Source of the DNA: Minisyncoccota bacterium | Lineage (GTDB): Bacteria; Patescibacteriota; Minisyncoccia; Phycocordibacterales; UBA9973 | Direction of reading: 5' to 3' | Assembly (NCBI GenBank): GCA_036517215.1 | Contig: DATDXF010000016.1 | Coordinates: 3,175-67,174, forward strand | DNA length: 64,000 nt | Part shown: positions 16,278-34,963 of the stretch, in pieces | Layout of the letters: the number at the start of each line of letters is the position of its first letter | How positions within the stretch are numbered: position 1 is the stretch's first letter | Program-made: the position numbers and the translations under genes | The notes under the pieces: model-generated | Database searches by the model: none | Seen by the model: only the letters and a program-made list of their open reading frames with translations | Told to the model about the DNA's origin: nothing

Positions 16278-16369
16278 TGGCGGAGCCGGGCGGATTCGAA
16301 CCGCCGAGGGGTTTTAAAGCCCCTGCCTCTTTAGCAAAGAGGTACGTTAGACCACTCTGACACGGCTCC
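16278..16369 (-). tRNA. tRNA-Ser (anticodon GCU), type II, CCA encoded
   Basis: Minus-strand reading GGAGCCG...CCTCT-TTGCTAA-AGAGG...long variable arm...GGCGG-TTCGAAT-CCGCC-CGGCTCC-G-CCA; 7/7 acceptor pairs. Confidence 0.8.
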
Positions 16370-16414: not shown

Positions 16415-16434
16415 CCTGCCTGCCGGCAGGCAGG
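16415..16434. repeat. 20-nt perfect GC palindrome CCTGCCTGCCGGCAGGCAGG followed by T-run
   Basis: Seen directly; same 9-nt arm recurs at 58797-58814. Confidence 0.6.
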
Positions 16435-16458
16435 TTTTCTGTTATACTCCCCTTATCG

Positions 16459-16544
16459 GGAGAGATGGGTGAGTGGTTTAAACCAACAGTTTACTAAACT
16501 GTCGTCCCCTAAAAGGACCGAGGGTTCGAATCCCTCTCTCACCG
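16459..16544 (+). tRNA. Type II tRNA with apparent anticodon ACU (Ser-like; G73 discriminator, 3-bp D-stem, 17-nt variable arm), CCA not encoded
   Basis: GGAGAGA-TG-GGT-GAGTGGTTTAA-ACC-A-ACAGT-TTACTAA-ACTGT-CGTCCCCTAAAAGGACC-GAGGG-TTCGAAT-CCCTC-TCTCACC-G; acceptor 6/7 (A3:A70 mismatch). Confidence 0.6.
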
Positions 16545-16589
16545 CATTGACAACTTAGTATCGGTGTGTCCTTGTTGCTTATGGCAACA

Positions 16590-16611
16590 GTGCGACCCGA
16601 GTATGTAAAAT
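16590..16611. repeat. Left copy of imperfect direct repeat GTGCGACCCGA-GTAT-GTAAAAT (attL-like)
   Basis: 11-mer GTGCGACCCGA plus GTAT..AAAAT shared with 21721-21761; abuts recQ stop codon. Confidence 0.45.
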
Positions 16612-18422
16612 CATTTAAGAAAAATTCTAGCTAAACGTAATTCTTCATATGAATAATCCTCCCCCAGAATTTCACGTACAGGAGCCAATAAAATACCACC
16701 AGTTTTTTTAAATGCTCCTGTGATTATTTCAAGTCTTTCATTTGAAGGTTTTAAATATGAAATATCTAATTGTGAATCAGTGGCAAAAATTTTTTCAATA
16801 TGACTCACGATGGTGCTGATAGACAATCCACGTCTTTTTGTTATTTCATCGATAGAAAACTTTTGCAGTACTAATTTTTTGGTTTCATCAAAAGTTGAAC
16901 CAGTATATGTGGATTTTGTTTTCGCTTCCGTTTTATAAGTTTCTACATATTGATTAATAACAGACATAAACTTTCCTCCGAACTGCAAAAGTTTCCTATC
17001 TCCGACTCCGCTGATTTCCAAAAACGCCTCTCTAGTCCGTGGAAAATGAGTTGCCATTTCGCGCAAAGCTTTATCTCCGAAAATCATATATGGCGGGAGT
17101 TTTAATTTAGACGCCTCTTGTGTTCTTATTTTCCTTAATTCTTCAAATAATATAGAGTCATATGCTTTATTTTCACTAGAGATATAGGTTCGTGGTCTAA
17201 CAACCTTAAGATTTACTCTATATGTTTCTAGCGGAGTTTGCGCTACGCATCTATCGCAATTTCCACAATTTGCCTCCTTGTATTCTTCATTGAAATAGCG
17301 AAGTAAAAATCTACGACGACACCCCTGGAGATTCCCATATCGTAAGACATATTCTAAATTTTCTTGTGTTTTTTTCTGTTCTGCCGCATCCGCTATATCC
17401 TGTATAAAATAATCATGCTTAAATTTATCGGCATACGAGAAAAATAAAACACACTGTGCAGGCAATCCATCGCGTCCCGCTCGACCAGTTTCTTGATAAT
17501 ACCCTTCAACTGACTTTGGTAAGCTGTGATGAATGACAAGTCGCACATCAGGCTTATCTATCCCCATACCAAACGCAATGGTCGCAACCATAATATTAAT
17601 TTCATCTCGGATAAATTTCTCTTGGTTATCTTTTCTCGTTTTTGAATCCAGACCAGCATGATAGGCGGCAGCTTTGAATCCACGATCGTTCAATTTATTT
17701 ACTAGTGTTTCCGTATCGTTGCGGGAAAAACAATATATAATTACACTCCCATCTCGATATTTGTTTAGTAACGCAAGAATTGACTTAAAAGAATCCTTTT
17801 TTGGCAAGACTTCATAACTCAGATTGGGACGATTAAAACTGGAAATAAAAATTTGAGGACTTTCTAGGCTCAGTTGTTTTACGATATCTTCACGCACTTT
17901 TTCTGTAGCAGTGGCAGTAAGTGCAATAATCGGAATTATAGGAAATTTCTTTCGCAATAATTTTAAATTCCGATAATCAGGCCTGAAATCATGTCCCCAT
18001 TCTGAAATGCAGTGAGCTTCATCAATAGCAATCAAACTTATTTTTAAAGTATGCAAGAAGTCTTCAAACCCCGGCACAGCTAATCGTTCAGGAGCTATAT
18101 ATAAAATTTTTAATTTCCCTGTTTTAGCTTTGTCCATAATACTGACAATTTCTACTGGAGAAAGTGTGCTGTTGATAAGGTCAGCCGTGATGCCGTTTGT
18201 ATGTAGGGCATCAACCTGATCTTTCATAAGGGAAATAAGCGGAGAAATAACAATGGCAATGCCTTCCATCATAAGTGCGGAAAGCTGGAAACAAAGAGAT
18301 TTTCCTCCGCCTGTCGGCATGAGCACGACGCAATCCTTGCTCTCCAATACTCGCTCAATAATTTCTTTCTGAAGCGGTCTGAATTCTTCGTATCCGAAAT
18401 ATTTTTTCAATATATCTTTCAT
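16611..18422 (-). CDS. recQ: ATP-dependent DNA helicase RecQ
   Basis: 603 aa; DEAH box, CISEWGHDFRPDY, zinc-binding CxxC...CxxC, RQC and HRDC-like C-terminus. Confidence 0.85.
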   Translation of the reverse strand: MKDILKKYFGYEEFRPLQKEIIERVLESKDCVVLMPTGGGKSLCFQLSALMMEGIAIVISPLISLMKDQVDALHTNGITADLINSTLSPVEIVSIMDKAKTGKLKILYIAPERLAVPGFEDFLHTLKISLIAIDEAHCISEWGHDFRPDYRNLKLLRKKFPIIPIIALTATATEKVREDIVKQLSLESPQIFISSFNRPNLSYEVLPKKDSFKSILALLNKYRDGSVIIYCFSRNDTETLVNKLNDRGFKAAAYHAGLDSKTRKDNQEKFIRDEINIMVATIAFGMGIDKPDVRLVIHHSLPKSVEGYYQETGRAGRDGLPAQCVLFFSYADKFKHDYFIQDIADAAEQKKTQENLEYVLRYGNLQGCRRRFLLRYFNEEYKEANCGNCDRCVAQTPLETYRVNLKVVRPRTYISSENKAYDSILFEELRKIRTQEASKLKLPPYMIFGDKALREMATHFPRTREAFLEISGVGDRKLLQFGGKFMSVINQYVETYKTEAKTKSTYTGSTFDETKKLVLQKFSIDEITKRRGLSISTIVSHIEKIFATDSQLDISYLKPSNERLEIITGAFKKTGGILLAPVREILGEDYSYEELRLARIFLK

Positions 18423-20542
18423 ATAAGTGAATTACTCTTTAATTTTTTATAAAATTTTTTTCGCTTTTTAAATTGATGATTGAGAAATTCTATCTTCTCG
18501 TCGTGAAAATCAATAATTTGTTTTATGCCTTCTCCGCGAAGTCTGCCGATATATTGTACCAGTTTTCCTTCAAACGAAAATGGAAATGCAAGCACTATCG
18601 TATCAACGCCGTGCACATCAAATCCCTCGCCGAGCAGTTGTCCGGTGGCAAGGAGCACTTGAAAGTTGCCTGCTTTAATTTGGTCAAATTTTATCTTTCT
18701 GGAACGCGCGCTATCGTCGCCAGAAACAGTAATGATTTCGGTTTCACCCCGCAGATATAAGTTGAGTATTTCAATATGTTCTTTGCGCTCGGTAAGCACC
18801 AGGACTTTTCTTTTTGATTTTATTTCCCTAAGAATTGCTTGTACCACCAATTCATTTCTCGCAGAGTCAAACGAAATCACTTTTGCAAGTGCTTCATAGT
18901 GATCTATTTTATAGCGAAACGGCAGAGTGATTTTTGTCGGATGAATGCTTACCTCAAATGTTTTGTTGTCTGACATATTAAAAGATTTTATTTCAGCAAT
19001 AACTGGTCCAATCATAAACTCAGTAATTTTTTCGCTTCCATATTTTCGTTCATGAGTTGCTGTAAGTCCAAAGCAATATCTGCTTTCCAGTAACATAATC
19101 AATTCCCTGTATGTTTTTGCGGGAATGTGATGACACTCGTCAATAATTATTACACCGAAGGAATTCTTAATTTCTTTTAAGTTTTTATATCTCATAAGAC
19201 TTTGTAGTGTAGCAATTGTGACTTGTTTTCCAATCTTTTTTCGTGTCCCCGAAATCGTCCCAATCTGCGTTTTTGGAATGCCTAAAAATTGTTCTGTGCG
19301 TTCAACCCACTGGGAAAGCAGTTGATTTCGATTTACAAGAATAAGTGCGGGTAATTCGAGGCGCGCTATGATTTCTAGGGCAATGACAGTCTTTCCAAAT
19401 CCGGGCGGCGAGACAATAATGCCATTTGTTTTATTTTTAATAATTTCAAGTATTTTTTCTTGTTCTTTTCGAAGTGTAATACTGCTCTTAAACTTTATAA
19501 CTTTATGTTTTTTATATTCTTCTATGACTTTATAAGTAATATTTTTCTCTTTAAGGTAATTTGTCAGTTTTTCAAGAAAACCTCTGGGAAGCGAGATCTC
19601 ATCCGTGCGATCTTGTATTAAGTTGAAATATTTTTCTATGCCAAATACGGATTTACCCAGTTTCTTTTTTGTAGCATATTCCTTGTTAAAAAGATTAAGC
19701 TCTTCTTTTATAAATGAACTAATTACTGATGAAATTTCCTGCTTCTTAATCCGTATCGAGCCATCCAAAACAATATGTACGCAAGAATTATTCAGTGGTT
19801 GTTCATCAGTACCACTGTGTGCAAATAAAAAATCATAAACAGAATCTAATTCTTGAGCCGTGTGTTTATGGCTTGTTTTTAAAAATTCCCATTGATTATG
19901 GTATGGGTTAAAGTTATCATAAAAATAAAATAAAGAAGCATTATGCTTTACGCATTCGCCCTGAAGCGGTAATGCGATTAAATTGCCAAACCCGCCTTCA
20001 GTTATAGTATCTTGGTTTGGAAATAACCGATCAAAACTAACTTCTTTTGCAAATTCAGAATAACCAAAAACCTTTCTTATGATTTCCAGCAAAATAGCTC
20101 GTGACTTCCAGCATGGATATTTTTCTTCAAAGAAAATCCACACGTGGGCGCCATTTCCTGAGCGGGAAATTTCTGTATATGCTTTTAGATTTAGGTTAAT
20201 GCATGCACTCATAAATTTCTGGCTGTCAGTTTTCCAGTCTGCCTCATCAAAATCAGCAACAATAAAATAAGAAGTATTGTCAGGAAGTATTGGATATATG
20301 CCAATAGTTTCTTTGCCTAAAAAATGATTTAGTAAAGTCTCGTCCGTAAGTGGAATTAATTTTTTATTTTCAAAATCTTTTATTGTTCCACCCCTTGCCC
20401 TGTGAGCATTGAACTCATTCCAATCAAAGGAGTACGCGGGAGACCAGCCGCTTTTATCATTTTTTTGCCACCGTCTGGCATAAACATCAGTACGAGCATT
20501 AAAAAGATTATGGTAAATGGTCAGCTTTTCTTGGTTCGTCAT
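18419..20542 (-). CDS. Fusion protein: N-terminal archaeo-eukaryotic Prim-Pol domain + C-terminal SF2 (ResIII/DEAH-type) helicase
   Basis: AEP motifs I (FIVADFDEADW), II (SGNGAHVWIFF), III (FDRLFPNQ...GNLIALP); then Walker A PPGFGKT, DECHH, LTAT, HELICc-like QYIGRLRGEG; stop overlaps recQ start (4-nt). Confidence 0.7.
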   Translation of the reverse strand: MTNQEKLTIYHNLFNARTDVYARRWQKNDKSGWSPAYSFDWNEFNAHRARGGTIKDFENKKLIPLTDETLLNHFLGKETIGIYPILPDNTSYFIVADFDEADWKTDSQKFMSACINLNLKAYTEISRSGNGAHVWIFFEEKYPCWKSRAILLEIIRKVFGYSEFAKEVSFDRLFPNQDTITEGGFGNLIALPLQGECVKHNASLFYFYDNFNPYHNQWEFLKTSHKHTAQELDSVYDFLFAHSGTDEQPLNNSCVHIVLDGSIRIKKQEISSVISSFIKEELNLFNKEYATKKKLGKSVFGIEKYFNLIQDRTDEISLPRGFLEKLTNYLKEKNITYKVIEEYKKHKVIKFKSSITLRKEQEKILEIIKNKTNGIIVSPPGFGKTVIALEIIARLELPALILVNRNQLLSQWVERTEQFLGIPKTQIGTISGTRKKIGKQVTIATLQSLMRYKNLKEIKNSFGVIIIDECHHIPAKTYRELIMLLESRYCFGLTATHERKYGSEKITEFMIGPVIAEIKSFNMSDNKTFEVSIHPTKITLPFRYKIDHYEALAKVISFDSARNELVVQAILREIKSKRKVLVLTERKEHIEILNLYLRGETEIITVSGDDSARSRKIKFDQIKAGNFQVLLATGQLLGEGFDVHGVDTIVLAFPFSFEGKLVQYIGRLRGEGIKQIIDFHDEKIEFLNHQFKKRKKFYKKLKSNSLI

Positions 20543-20550
20543 ACATAATT

Positions 20551-21600
20551 TTATTTCTTCTTATACCTCGTCGTTCGTCCCTGCCCGATGCGTTCCACTT
20601 TTTTCAGCCGTAGAAGAGTATTGAGTGCTTGCGATACAGTAGGGCGTGCAACTTTAGTGACTTTTGAAATTTCACCAGGCGTTGCCTCCGGCACTTTTAA
20701 GAGATATTGCCACACTAAAAGTTGTTTCGGAGAAAGAAGTTTCTCAATATTTTCTTTTGATAATAATTCAATTGCTTGCCTTGCTTGGGTAAGTAGAGCA
20801 GTGAAAAAGAATTCAAGCCATGGCATAATATTTGAGTTGTCAGTTTTTAAAGTTTTCTGGCTTTTACGAAGAGCTATGTAATATTCCGCTTTATTGTCTT
20901 CAACTAATTTCTCATGCGAAACATATGGCATATATGCATAGCCGGCCTTGAGCATCATTAAATTTGTCAGCACACGAGAAAGCCTGCCGTTACCATCTTG
21001 AAAAGGATGAATGTTTAAAAACTCTACGAGAAAGTTGCCGATAATAATGATTGGATGAATTTCTTTTATAACAACGGCTTCTCTTGTCCACTCTACCAAC
21101 TCAAGCATTTCTTTCGGCGTAAGCCACGCAGGTGTAGTATCAAATAATACGCCAATAGATTGACCAGCTTCATTCACCATTTCAACCCTGTTTTCACCTT
21201 TTTTATATTCACCTCGGTGAAGTTTATCTTTCTCAACATATTTTAAAAGTTCTTTATGAAGATGCTGAATACTGCTTTCTGAAAATGGTATCTTGTCATA
21301 AGAGTTGAATACGTTTTCAAGCAGTTCATAGTATCCTCGCACTTCCTGCTTGTCCCGATCGGTGAATTTTTGCATAGAAAGACCACGCATCATTTTTTCG
21401 ATGTCTTCATCGGAGAGCTTAGCTCCCTCGATACGAGTTGATGCACCAGTTGATGTAACTAAAACCGAACGCTTCAACCGTCCAAGTGCCTGTGGATTTA
21501 TTTCCGCTCCACCAATCCATCTGCCTTTTAATTCATCAATTTGATTGATGAATGCCCATAAATTTTGTGGTATATTTTCAATGCGTTTATTGTAGTTCAT
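20551..21600 (-). CDS. Fic/Doc family protein with C-terminal winged-HTH
   Basis: Canonical Fic motif HPFQDGNGRLSRVL; C-terminal wHTH-like segment; 8 nt upstream of Prim-Pol-helicase gene. Confidence 0.8.
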   Translation of the reverse strand: MNYNKRIENIPQNLWAFINQIDELKGRWIGGAEINPQALGRLKRSVLVTSTGASTRIEGAKLSDEDIEKMMRGLSMQKFTDRDKQEVRGYYELLENVFNSYDKIPFSESSIQHLHKELLKYVEKDKLHRGEYKKGENRVEMVNEAGQSIGVLFDTTPAWLTPKEMLELVEWTREAVVIKEIHPIIIIGNFLVEFLNIHPFQDGNGRLSRVLTNLMMLKAGYAYMPYVSHEKLVEDNKAEYYIALRKSQKTLKTDNSNIMPWLEFFFTALLTQARQAIELLSKENIEKLLSPKQLLVWQYLLKVPEATPGEISKVTKVARPTVSQALNTLLRLKKVERIGQGRTTRYKKK

Positions 21601-24092: not shown

Positions 24093-26300
24093 ATGCAATT
24101 AAGTGAAAGGCTGGAAGATAAATTCCGTTTGGATATAAACCAGAAAAAGGCGCTCCGCAAGCTGGGGCTTTTTTCTGTGGCAGACTTGTTATTCCATTTC
24201 CCTGTCAGGTATAGCGACATAAGTGAAGTAAAAAGCATAGCGGAACTACTGCCGGGCGACATGGCTACGGTTTCGGGCATTGTAACCAAACTAAAAACCA
24301 AAAAAGCTTTCCGCTCAAAGATTCCCATGGGCGAAGGCGAGATAGAAGACCTGTCCGGAAAAATAAAAATAATTTGGTTCCACCAGGCCTACCTCGCTAA
24401 AATGATAAAAAACGGCGAGAATGTAAAATTGACCGGAAAAGTCGCGGATGGTAAAAGTGGCCCGTACCTCACGAACCCGGAATTCGAAAAAATGCCCGGC
24501 ATGCCGATCGACTCGCACGACACTTTATTTAAAAGCCCCGCCCTGCCAAGGGAGGGGTTTGGGGAGGGTCTATCCTACGCAGTCTACGCGGAAACACGGG
24601 GCGTAACTTCCAAATGGTTTTATCATGCTATTGATAAAACACTAAAAGAAAAAACTCTTGATAATATTGAAGATTATATCCCGGCAGATATTCTAGCAAA
24701 ATACCACCTGCCGACTTTAAAGACCGCGCTTATATGGATACATAAGCCGAAAAACAAAAAGGACGCCGAGAGCGCGCGTAAAAGATTCGCTTTTGAAGAA
24801 GTATTTTGCATCCAGCTGGAACGCCAGCATGACAAGCATGAATACAGGAAAAATAAATCTTTCCAAATAAAACCTGCTGAAAAAGACGTGGAAGAATTCT
24901 TAAAACGCTTCCCTTTTGAGCCGACCAATTCCCAGGAAAAATCTATCGGTACCATACTCGCGGATATGTCAAAAAATTTCCCGATGTCGCGCCTGCTTGA
25001 AGGGGATGTGGGCTCCGGAAAGACAGCGGTGGCCGCAACAGCAAGCTATGTTACGGTGCGGGAACGGCCGAACGGCCAGAGCTTTGGCAATTTGCAGGTA
25101 GCGTACATGGCTCCCACGGAAATACTGGCGACCCAGCATTTTGAATCTTTTATCCAATACTTCAGTCCGCCGGCTAGCGGACTGCCCATAAACATAGGGC
25201 TTATCACTGGAAGCGGCTGCAGAAAATTTCCTTCGAAAGTAAACCCCGGCGGCTGGACCACGATTTCCCGCTCCCAGCTTTTAAAATGGGTAGCTAACGG
25301 TGAAATACCTATTTTAATAGGCACCCACGCTCTTATTCAAAAAACGGTTAAATTTAAAAATCTGGCGCTGGTGGTCATAGATGAGCAGCACCGTTTTGGA
25401 ACAGCCCAAAGACGAAAACTCGTACGCAAAGACAATATTGCCCCACACTTGCTTTCTATGACCGCCACTCCCATCCCGCGCACGCTCGCGCTTACTATCT
25501 ACGGAGACCTCGATTTATCGCTCTTGGAAGAAATGCCGGCCGGCCGGAAACCCATAATCACCGAGATAATAACTCCGCAAAAACGCGAGGAGACTTACGA
25601 AAAAATCCGCGGGGAATTAAAAGCCGGGCGTCAGCTTTACGTCATATGCCCGAGAATTTTCGAACCCGACCCGGAAAAAGAACTTGCTCTTAACGTAAAA
25701 TCCGCCGTCGCCGAAGCCAAGATATTAAAAGAAAAAGTATTTCGGGAATACGAGATAGGCGTGCTTCACAGCAAGATGAGCAAAGAAAAAAAAGAAGAAG
25801 TCATGCGGGAATTTACCGAGGGTTCCATACAGATACTGTGCGCGACTTCGGTCGTGGAGGTCGGCGTCAACGTCCCGAACGCGACTATTATCATCATAGA
25901 GGGAGCCGAGCGCTTTGGACTGGCTCAGCTACACCAACTGCGTGGACGGGTAATAAGAAGCTCGCATCAGGCGTTTTGTTATATTTTTGCCTCCCACTCC
26001 GCTAAAGCTACGAGGGACAAAGGAAGCAAAACTATACAAAGACTGCAGGCTTTAATGACTGCAAAAAACGGTTTTGAGCTTGCGGAGCTTGACCTTGCGC
26101 TCCGGGGCGCGGGTGAACTTTCCGGCACAAAGCAGTGGGGCATTACCGACCTCGGAATGGAAGCCATAAAAAACATAAAAATGGTAGAAGCTGCGCGGAC
26201 AGAAGCCGTCCGCTTGATAGAAGAAGACCCTGAGCTCGTCCGTTATCCCTTACTAAAACAAAAAACCCGCGAAAAGACGGGTGAGTTTCACTTCGAGTAA
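24093..26300 (+). CDS. recG: ATP-dependent DNA helicase RecG
   Basis: 735 aa; N-terminal wedge/OB region, Walker A GDVGSGKT, DEQHRFG, helicase C-terminal motifs. Confidence 0.85.
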   Translation: MQLSERLEDKFRLDINQKKALRKLGLFSVADLLFHFPVRYSDISEVKSIAELLPGDMATVSGIVTKLKTKKAFRSKIPMGEGEIEDLSGKIKIIWFHQAYLAKMIKNGENVKLTGKVADGKSGPYLTNPEFEKMPGMPIDSHDTLFKSPALPREGFGEGLSYAVYAETRGVTSKWFYHAIDKTLKEKTLDNIEDYIPADILAKYHLPTLKTALIWIHKPKNKKDAESARKRFAFEEVFCIQLERQHDKHEYRKNKSFQIKPAEKDVEEFLKRFPFEPTNSQEKSIGTILADMSKNFPMSRLLEGDVGSGKTAVAATASYVTVRERPNGQSFGNLQVAYMAPTEILATQHFESFIQYFSPPASGLPINIGLITGSGCRKFPSKVNPGGWTTISRSQLLKWVANGEIPILIGTHALIQKTVKFKNLALVVIDEQHRFGTAQRRKLVRKDNIAPHLLSMTATPIPRTLALTIYGDLDLSLLEEMPAGRKPIITEIITPQKREETYEKIRGELKAGRQLYVICPRIFEPDPEKELALNVKSAVAEAKILKEKVFREYEIGVLHSKMSKEKKEEVMREFTEGSIQILCATSVVEVGVNVPNATIIIIEGAERFGLAQLHQLRGRVIRSSHQAFCYIFASHSAKATRDKGSKTIQRLQALMTAKNGFELAELDLALRGAGELSGTKQWGITDLGMEAIKNIKMVEAARTEAVRLIEEDPELVRYPLLKQKTREKTGEFHFE

Positions 26301-29977: not shown

Positions 29978-30064
29978 TACAAAGATAAACGGAGCACAAG
30001 AGAGACTTCCAAAAACCGAGCATCTATAAGAGGTTTAGAGGGTAAATTTTCGGGTAATTTATTG

Positions 30065-30138
30065 TCCGTCCTCTTGGATTCGAACCAAGGACCCCAGAGG
30101 TATAAGCTCTGTGCTCTAACCAACTGAGCTAAGGACGG
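30065..30138 (-). tRNA. tRNA-Ile (anticodon UAU), CCA not encoded
   Basis: Minus-strand reading CCGTCCT-TA-GCTC-AGTTGGTTA-GAGC-A-CAGAG-CTTATAC-CTCTG-GGGTC-CTTGG-TTCGAAT-CCAAG-AGGACGG-A; all stems pair. Confidence 0.8.
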
Positions 30139-34419: not shown

Positions 34420-34565
34420 AATTTAATTATATGCCCGTTCGACATGCCCTTCAACTTCGTTCAGGGCAAGCTCAGGGCACTCGCCTCAAAATACCCTTAG
34501 AGTTCCTTGGGTGTTTTTGCTGTGGCTTGCCACGAGCGAATTTTGTCACTACAAAATGAGTCGAG

Positions 34566-34963
34566 TGGAGATGACGGGAATCGAACCCGTGTGCAAAAGG
34601 TTTTTGCAAAGAAGTCTACATGCTTAGCGAGCTTTTTTGTTTAGATTAAAAAATTCTTAAGCGGGCCAAATATTTTTTAACCGAGTTCTAAGTTTTCGAA
34701 AAATGTTCGAACGGGCATTTCCTTATCCCGATAATATTACACCTCTACTCATATATCGGAAGTCTATGAGAGAGACGCCGGCACTCGCTTACGCGAAAGC
34801 TGGAACGAAAGCAAAGTCCTTCATACCGAAGTAATCAGAAACAATTGCTTTAGTTTTGGTAGTCAATTTTGCAATTAACATTTGAACGAATTTTCACGAG
34901 ATTACGTTCATGCTCGACATGCATCAATAGCAAAGCGACCTTCTGTCTATGCCTTGCATCCCC
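34566..34963 (-). ncRNA. ssrA: tmRNA (transfer-messenger RNA)
   Basis: 5' GGGGAUG pairs 7/7 with 3' CAUCUCC-A including G3:U70 alanine identity pair; T-arm ACGGG-UUCGAUU-CCCGU; in-frame GCA resume codon at nt 92 then 27 sense codons ending GCU-UUC-GCG-UAA (..PAFA); smpB immediately upstream on same strand. Confidence 0.8.

Follow-up and report, generated by a model that had tools for sequence, protein, structure and literature searches.

The stretch of DNA analysed here (64,000 nucleotides; hereafter the window) contains four RNA genes according to ARAGORN, among them two serine tRNA genes with the anticodons ACT and GCT. The genes and elements around this pair that the argument needs are the following.

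16278-16369, minus strand: tRNA-Ser(GCU), the partner isoacceptor, with CCA encoded (ARAGORN); divergent from tRNA-Ser(ACU) and 89 nt away from it
16440-16448, plus strand: extended -10 promoter-like motif TGTTATACT, read from the sequence, ending 10 nt before the 5' end of the tRNA
16459-16544, plus strand: tRNA-Ser(ACU), type II, positions 1-73 (ARAGORN, Rfam, covarying family)
16493-16495, plus strand: anticodon A34-C35-U36 (ACT), inside the 7-nt loop UUACUAA at 16491-16497
16541, plus strand: A70, mismatched to base 16461 (A3·A70); U70 in close relatives
16611-18422, minus strand: RecQ, in DNA of 36-39% GC (block 16611-21600)
18419-20542, minus strand: AEP-TOTE PrimPol fused to an SF2 helicase, in the same block and GC range
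20551-21600, minus strand: SoFic-like Fic/HTH protein, in the same block and GC range
24093-26300, plus strand: recG, synteny anchor of the ACU/GCU pair in Patescibacteria (Pfam RecG_wedge, DEAD and RecG_dom3_C)

The window gene is a true serine tRNA gene with an anticodon that begins with A. ARAGORN called a tRNA-Ser with anticodon ACT at 16459-16545(+), and the Rfam tRNA model (RF00005) matched 16459-16544 over model positions 1-71 of 71 with 54.3 bits, against a gathering score of 29. The first-pass annotation had described a cloverleaf with six of seven acceptor pairs, a 3-bp D-stem, a 5-bp anticodon stem, a long variable arm, a canonical T-arm and G73, and every one of these elements matches the sequence. 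The acceptor stem (GGAGAGA/UCUCACC) is interrupted only by A3·A70 (bases 16461 and 16541), the D-stem is GGU/ACC and the anticodon stem ACAGU/ACUGU, the variable arm (GUCC...GGAC) has a stem of at least 3 bp that covaries across 56 relatives, the T-arm reads GAGGG-UUCGAAU-CCCUC, and the discriminator is the G at 16544. The 7-nt loop UUACUAA with its ACU anticodon was likewise borne out by both the sequence and ARAGORN. Neither ARAGORN nor Rfam, whose score is far over threshold, puts the anticodon elsewhere, and the type II serine identity proposed earlier agrees with the ARAGORN call, the long variable arm and G73.

The nucleotides expected to hold the tertiary fold together (U8, A14, G18-G19, A21, U33 and the T-loop GTTCGAATC) are all intact in the window gene. 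The same nucleotides are invariant in the family alignment, in which G18-G19, U33 and the T-loop were fixed by the search pattern used to collect the sequences and U8, A14 and A21 were free to vary. G2:C71 is present in all 56 aligned Patescibacteria ACU sequences. The gene does not encode CCA; the sequence CATTG comes next. Although the minimum free energy fold has a z-score of -2.55, we regard homology and covariation over more than 100 related genes as the main support for a tRNA-Ser(ACU), rather than this z-score.

Two further RNA genes lie elsewhere in the window. A tRNA-Ile(UAU) gene at 30064-30138 (minus strand) encodes no CCA, and ATA usage in the window is very high (33 per 1000 codons). 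This tRNA is listed as generally absent in prokaryotes (PMC8007984); we also found it in five of the fetched genome loci and among the tRNA genes of two viral sets (29 genes). A tmRNA gene at 34563-34963 (minus strand) scored 133 bits. The tag proposed by ARAGORN, ARSNIFRKLRTRLKNIWPA, comes from a region other than the canonical resume codon, and if translation is instead started at the GCA that aligns with the Rfam resume site, the tag is unusually long at 27 amino acids, AKLTTKTKAIVSDYFGMKDFAFVPAFA.

The neighbouring tRNA-Ser(GCU), which had also been noted on first reading, is real by ARAGORN (16278-16369, minus strand), and Rfam does not report it as a tRNA at its gathering score. The D-stem of this gene is degenerate (U10·U25, C11-G24, A12·C23). 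This odd D-arm, GUGUCAGAGUGGUCUAACGUA, is kept across many Patescibacteria, where C11-G24 covaries to U-A. Of 121 ACU loci, 69 had a tRNA-Ser(GCU) gene in the fetched stretch, and its distance from the ACU gene was often below 150 nt; in Patescibacteria the two genes are usually adjacent. The pair also has a larger syntenic context, in that recG lies within a few kilobases of the ACU tRNA in 27 Patescibacteria loci, with up to 82% amino-acid identity to the recG of the window. The distance from the tRNA pair to recG is 7.5 kb in the window, compared to at most about 1.6 kb in close relatives, and in the relatives checked (two loci) the tRNA that faces recG is the GCU gene, not the ACU gene. 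The longer gap and the switched facing tRNA indicate that this spot is rearranged and variable.

The region between the two tRNA genes contains a candidate promoter for the ACU gene. By reading the sequence and comparing relatives we recognised the extended -10 motif TGTTATACT, and a T-rich tract followed by 'tg(c/t)tatact' is kept upstream of the ACU tRNA in its seven closest relatives. TGTTATACT may serve as a promoter; a scan with the sigma-70 consensus returned no -35/-10 promoter for tRNA-Ser(ACU). A perfect 20-nt palindrome, CCTGCCTGCCGGCAGGCAGG, occupies positions 16415-16434 between the two divergent genes and is followed by TTTT. It interrupts an upstream tract that is continuous in close relatives, and it has a terminator-like score on the plus strand yet no plus-strand gene upstream.

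We scanned one genome per species (GTDB) with a pattern for a type II tRNA with the loop YUACUAA, a common T-loop and a Ser-type D-loop. The scan returned at least 120 matches, against approximately five expected by chance by our own estimate, and ARAGORN classified 118 of the 120 listed matches as tRNA-Ser(ACU), corresponding to at least 118 species-level genomes. Pooled together with the window gene and its two metagenome copies, the set comprised 107 unique sequences. The loop UUACUAA occurs in at least 118 genome copies and at least 120 viral copies, as the search pattern required; since the pattern fixed the anticodon loop, the T-loop and part of the D-loop in both the genome and the viral samples, neither prevalence nor loop conservation can be read from these samples.

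Most of the listed genomes with a tRNA-Ser(ACU) are metagenome-assembled genomes (MAGs) of Patescibacteria, with labels that include Saccharibacteria, Paceibacterota, Nomura-, Magasanik-, Zambryski-, Taylor-, Kaiser-, Yanofsky-, Vogel-, Buchanan- and Levyibacteria. The other listed carriers are Planctomycetota, Verrucomicrobiota, Burkholderiales (including Polynucleobacter isolates) and a few others. The window gene belongs to this family: its nearest relatives are ACU genes, a GCU gene lies 89 nt away and recG 7.5 kb away, and it is near-identical to the genes of seven MAGs labelled Nomurabacteria or Paceibacterota, which assigns the window to this group. The earlier remark that an ACU anticodon is rare therefore needs to be divided. 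Such an anticodon is unusual by the textbook and seldom found in model bacteria. In Patescibacteria, however, it is routine, and phage tRNA arrays frequently contain it.

Outside the Patescibacteria, freshwater MAGs contain two families of tRNA-Ser(ACU) (nine and seven loci, respectively), and within each family the sequences closely resemble one another. The labels of these MAGs are Planctomycetota, Chitinophaga, Singulisphaera, Kuenenia and Burkholderiales. The genomes concerned have 50-69% GC and few AGU codons, and some of the taxon labels look unreliable. In one locus of each family the ACU gene sits amid housekeeping genes (Planctomycetota: pyruvate kinase, molybdate transport, MoeA and MoaA). 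A further group of three loci, from Polynucleobacter isolates and a betaproteobacterial MAG, includes ACU tRNAs of cultured strains with mismatches in the acceptor stem; one of them (L016) has the acceptor strands 5' GGAAACG and 3' CCUCUCC, which leaves two mismatches. The mismatched Polynucleobacter copies could be hybrid att-site copies or decaying genes.

Several lines of evidence argue that the Patescibacteria genes form an old family under constraint. The consensus fold of the 56 aligned ACU tRNAs is a cloverleaf in which 18 of 27 pairs exhibit compensatory double changes. With the anticodon left out, ACU genes are 78% identical to one another, a value inflated because the search pattern fixed the loops, compared to 62% for ACU genes against the GCU gene of the same locus. 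The nearest neighbour of an ACU gene is another ACU gene in 90 of 92 cases, a proportion likewise inflated by selection with the pattern. Taken together, the covariation, the clustering of ACU genes, the synteny with GCU and recG and the kept upstream motif indicate that the gene is an old paralogue under purifying selection. We also considered a fresh G34A mutation of the adjacent GCU gene and rejected it, as the two share only ~62% identity.

With regard to origin, we looked in metagenomes for copies of this anticodon arm, leaving position 34 free to vary. The serine tRNAs recovered comprised 96 with GCU and 10 with ACU; the few matches with T or C at this position were tRNA-Arg, and no serine tRNA with U34 or C34 was found in this search. 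The 5' half of the window gene agrees almost base for base with that of an ordinary bacterial tRNA-Ser(GCU). These two results indicate that the ACU family has the backbone of the canonical tRNA-Ser(GCU) with a G34A change. The more divergent member of the Patescibacteria pair is the retained GCU gene, not the ACU gene.

The resemblance to canonical tRNA-Ser(GCU), as represented by E. coli serV and plastid trnS-GCU, extends to the type II architecture, G73, G2:C71 and the purine-rich acceptor strand GGAGAGA. The anticodon arm (CAACAGUUU-N-CUAAACUGUCG) and the T-arm are near-identical to the canonical ones, and the antisense strand of the window gene matches the plastid trnS-derived Rfam family RF04351. 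Unlike the canonical tRNA, the ACU gene has A34 in place of G34, and Patescibacteria have it in addition to a second, divergent GCU gene, not as a replacement.

The same tRNA is carried by viruses. Scanning IMG/VR with the pattern used for the genomes, we identified at least 120 viral contigs, and all 120 listed matches were tRNA-Ser(ACU). The viral genes lie in tRNA arrays, and the median number of tRNAs in a stretch is five. A scan that accepted either anticodon gave 25 ACU and 95 GCU genes among the matches listed. The two are rarely found together, as GCU was present in 3 of 120 ACU loci and ACU in 0 of 94 GCU loci (again among the matches listed), and ACU and GCU thus appear to fill the same slot in phages. 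Codon usage differs between the two groups of viral stretches as follows.

Viral stretches with Ser(ACU): AGU 20.1 and AGC 8.8 per 1000 codons; AGY share of serine codons 48%
Viral stretches with Ser(GCU): AGU 13.7 and AGC 8.4 per 1000 codons; AGY share of serine codons 33%

AGU is higher in the ACU stretches than in the GCU stretches (p=2e-9), and AGC does not differ. A plausible explanation is that phages use Ser(ACU) instead of GCU when their genes are rich in AGU. Ser(ACU) is the only abundant anticodon with A34 in a split codon box in the viral arrays, among the matches listed. As for cultured phages, Xanthomonas phage XaC1 alone was confirmed to have an ACU tRNA (OR258281, 305983-306070; 79% identical to the window gene), and the tRNA is absent from the well-studied phages Felix O1, Aeromonas phage 25 and S-CBWM1. 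The viral genes share the anticodon loop and the type II serine architecture of the window gene, in XaC1 as in many IMG/VR contigs. They differ from it in that they stand in arrays and substitute for GCU, whereas the window gene is chromosomal and paired with GCU.

On the host side, the relation to AGU usage is looser. Patescibacteria loci overall use AGU more than AGC (13.5 and 8.6 per 1000, respectively), but in the window AGC exceeds AGU (11.8 and 7.1 per 1000), and Planctomycetota at ~60% GC with few AGU codons retain a chromosomal ACU gene among housekeeping genes. Because of these two observations, demand for AGU is not the whole story, and we rejected AT-richness or AGU demand as the sole driver.

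We consider it probable, at roughly 75%, that the window gene is an authentic tRNA-Ser(ACU) on the chromosome of a Patescibacteria (CPR) bacterium and a member of an old, conserved isoacceptor family that decodes AGU beside GCU. An observation that sits uneasily with full activity is the acceptor-stem mismatch. Pair 3:70 is AU in 54 of the 56 aligned Patescibacteria ACU tRNAs, GC in one and AA in one, the last being the window gene, whose acceptor stem falls short of full pairing at 3:70 alone. This single mismatch weakens confidence in full activity and leaves the identity call unaffected. The window copy could on this account be an early pseudogene, that is, a decaying or inactive duplicate in a family that is functional elsewhere, with the GCU tRNA reading all AGY codons here. 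Such a history would fit a mismatch found in the window copy alone of the 56, the unencoded CCA, a variable loop that falls 1 nt short of that in the nearest relatives, the minor status of AGU among the AGY codons of the window and the 20-nt palindrome inserted upstream relative to related loci. We nevertheless judge it unlikely. Only one position is unpaired in a gene that scores almost twice the Rfam threshold, the conserved tertiary nucleotides and the extended -10 motif are all retained, and CCA is also absent from about half of the family and from the tRNA-Ile(UAU) of the window. Moreover, the identical tRNA sequence recurs in two independent contigs from different metagenomes, and the mismatch therefore appears to be fixed in the species. 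Of the features that mark a tRNA pseudogene (several broken stems, lost conserved nucleotides, a low score and a lost promoter), the window gene has a single mismatch. As a main reading, the pseudogene suggested by the first-pass annotation consequently gives way to the high score, the strongly covarying family and the clade's extended -10 motif, and A3·A70 leaves a small residual chance of mild decay or loss of function in this copy.

The surroundings of the gene had raised a different suspicion, namely that the tRNA abuts an insertion and is borne by it. The first half of this appears to hold: the low-GC, defence-like block is real, and the stretch from 16611 to 21600 has the look of an inserted defence or conflict module that separates the tRNA pair from recG. 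The second half does not, as the block is a neighbour of the tRNA and not its source. Were the tRNA the cargo or att site of a mobile element (the RecQ/AEP-helicase/Fic block, or a prophage), this would agree with a tRNA 3' end that points to a 36-39% GC stretch encoding an AEP-TOTE PrimPol-helicase and a SoFic-like Fic protein, with a gap between the pair and recG of 7.5 kb here and at most about 1.6 kb in close relatives, and with the frequent carriage of Ser(ACU) by phages. However, direct repeats of the tRNA 3' end were found neither in 15.5-25 kb nor elsewhere in the window, no integrase domain was detected among the nine large ORFs scanned against Pfam, and for the block itself neither flanking repeats nor an integrase were found. 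The tRNA is also orthologous in many Patescibacteria that have the synteny with GCU and recG (27 loci for the pair with recG) and have no such block, and RecQ adjoins the ACU tRNA in four other Patescibacteria loci. A mobile origin is for these reasons highly improbable. A homologue of the AEP-helicase lies near the ACU tRNA in one other locus only, with 37% identity. We also asked whether TOTE denotes a system linked to tRNA and rejected the idea, as the name stands for TPR, OB, TBP and Effector, with no known tRNA component.

Two other readings concern what the tRNA does, not whether it is intact or at home. In one, A34 would be converted to inosine or carry another modification, and the resulting ICU anticodon would read AGU, AGC and AGA and put serine at AGA codons for arginine, making this a recoding or mistranslating tRNA. 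The loop U33-A34-C35 does resemble that of the TadA substrate tRNA-Arg(ACG), and some of the phage ACU arrays also hold tRNA-Arg(ACG), implying hosts with TadA, so that ACU tRNAs probably meet TadA in some hosts. Position 36, however, is U, compared to G in the natural TadA substrate, and four Patescibacteria loci with a purine-34 tRNA-Arg for the CGN box have GCG, not ACG. The codons themselves also speak against the idea. At the AGA codons of the window's recG and recQ, 79% of the aligned orthologue residues are arginine and only 1% serine, and AGU codons of these genes align with serine, as AGC codons do. Judged from these alignments, the genetic code is standard, with AGA as arginine and AGU as serine, and we rejected a code change at either codon. 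AGA is common in the window (10.6 per 1000), and its misreading would therefore be costly. We regard this reading as very unlikely, and the suggestion on first inspection of a recoding or suppressor-like tRNA is not supported by the same data; ACU complements AGU, a serine codon. In the other reading, the role of the tRNA would lie outside translation, as a serine donor for tRNA-dependent aminoacylation of cell wall or lipid or as an RNA with a regulatory or decoy function. Firmicutes are known to have tRNA isoacceptors dedicated to non-ribosomal tasks, and the gene persists in high-GC Planctomycetota with very few AGU codons. But AGU usage tracks the presence of ACU in phages, the mutual exclusion of ACU and GCU in phage arrays is what one decoding slot would lead us to expect, the T-arm and acceptor stem have canonical forms in which no anti-determinants for EF-Tu are obvious, and no conserved partner enzyme was seen near the gene. 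We give this role scant probability.

The tRNA-Arg(GCG) in those four Patescibacteria loci also bears on TadA itself. To our knowledge, tRNA-Arg(GCG) is normally absent from bacteria that use Arg(ACG) with TadA, and no Arg(ACG) was present in any Patescibacteria locus fetched. The use of Arg(GCG) instead of Arg(ACG) in four loci hints that TadA may be absent there. As a general explanation, however, the notion that A34 is safe because TadA is missing is weakly supported and we set it aside, since phage ACU arrays co-occur with Arg(ACG).

The preferred reading, a chromosomal isoacceptor that decodes AGU, suggests how a tRNA of this kind could work. SerRS identifies its tRNA by the long variable arm and by the acceptor end, and not by the anticodon, whereas the synthetases of most other amino acids with NNY boxes use anticodon bases as identity elements. 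Because SerRS ignores the anticodon, a G34A variant should stay charged with serine, and this blindness would explain why, in the viral arrays examined, Ser(ACU) alone is abundant among A34 anticodons of split boxes. A34 would form a Watson-Crick pair with the U of AGU and perhaps pair weakly with the C of AGC. The ACU tRNA would in this way add dedicated decoding of AGU with the code unchanged, while the GCU tRNA would cover AGC and wobble-read AGU. Such an A34 would be harmless only as long as it escapes deamination to inosine, since an ICU anticodon would read the arginine codon AGA as well. That the tRNA is expressed, charged with serine and unmodified at A34, and which codons exactly it decodes, is inferred here from sequence comparison.

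Among known A34 tRNAs, tRNA-Arg(ACG), converted by TadA to I34, is the only one widespread in bacteria. The window tRNA resembles it in having A34-C35 in a 7-nt loop, U33 and A37. It differs in that tRNA-Arg(ACG) serves a four-codon box, is deaminated and has G36 in a U-A-C-G-A loop, whereas ACU belongs to a split box and has U36 in a U-A-C-U-A loop. Genomic A34 tRNAs other than Arg(ACG) have been described in Mollicutes and Leuconostocaceae, namely tRNA-Thr(AGU) and tRNA-Leu(AAG) (PMC8007984). The window gene resembles these in being a genomic A34 tRNA that is not Arg(ACG), but they serve four-codon boxes and usually replace the G34 gene, whereas ACU stands in a two-codon box.

For the window, these results replace a suspected oddity with a plain annotation, a tRNA-Ser isoacceptor typical of its lineage, and they are relevant to annotation pipelines that mark such tRNA genes as suspect. 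The family is moderately surprising, since a 2021 review describes A34 in the Ser/Arg split box as 'universally missing', and as 'prohibited' in phages too (PMC8007984); the window gene itself is typical of its lineage. In full-text searches of the literature we encountered no account of a tRNA-Ser(ACU) from bacteria or phages. The broader proposition, in which tRNA-Ser(ACU) is a functional, selectively kept AGU decoder in the Patescibacteria superphylum, some Planctomycetota and many phages, and phages boost AGU-rich genes with it, is in our estimation about evenly balanced between true and false. If it is true, the exclusion of A34 anticodons from split codon boxes is not universal, and either A34 escapes modification and tells AGU apart from AGR on the ribosome, or A34 is handled in a way that is new to biology. 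The family offers a natural system in which to study why A34 is normally avoided, how TadA chooses its substrates and how A34 discriminates within a split box.
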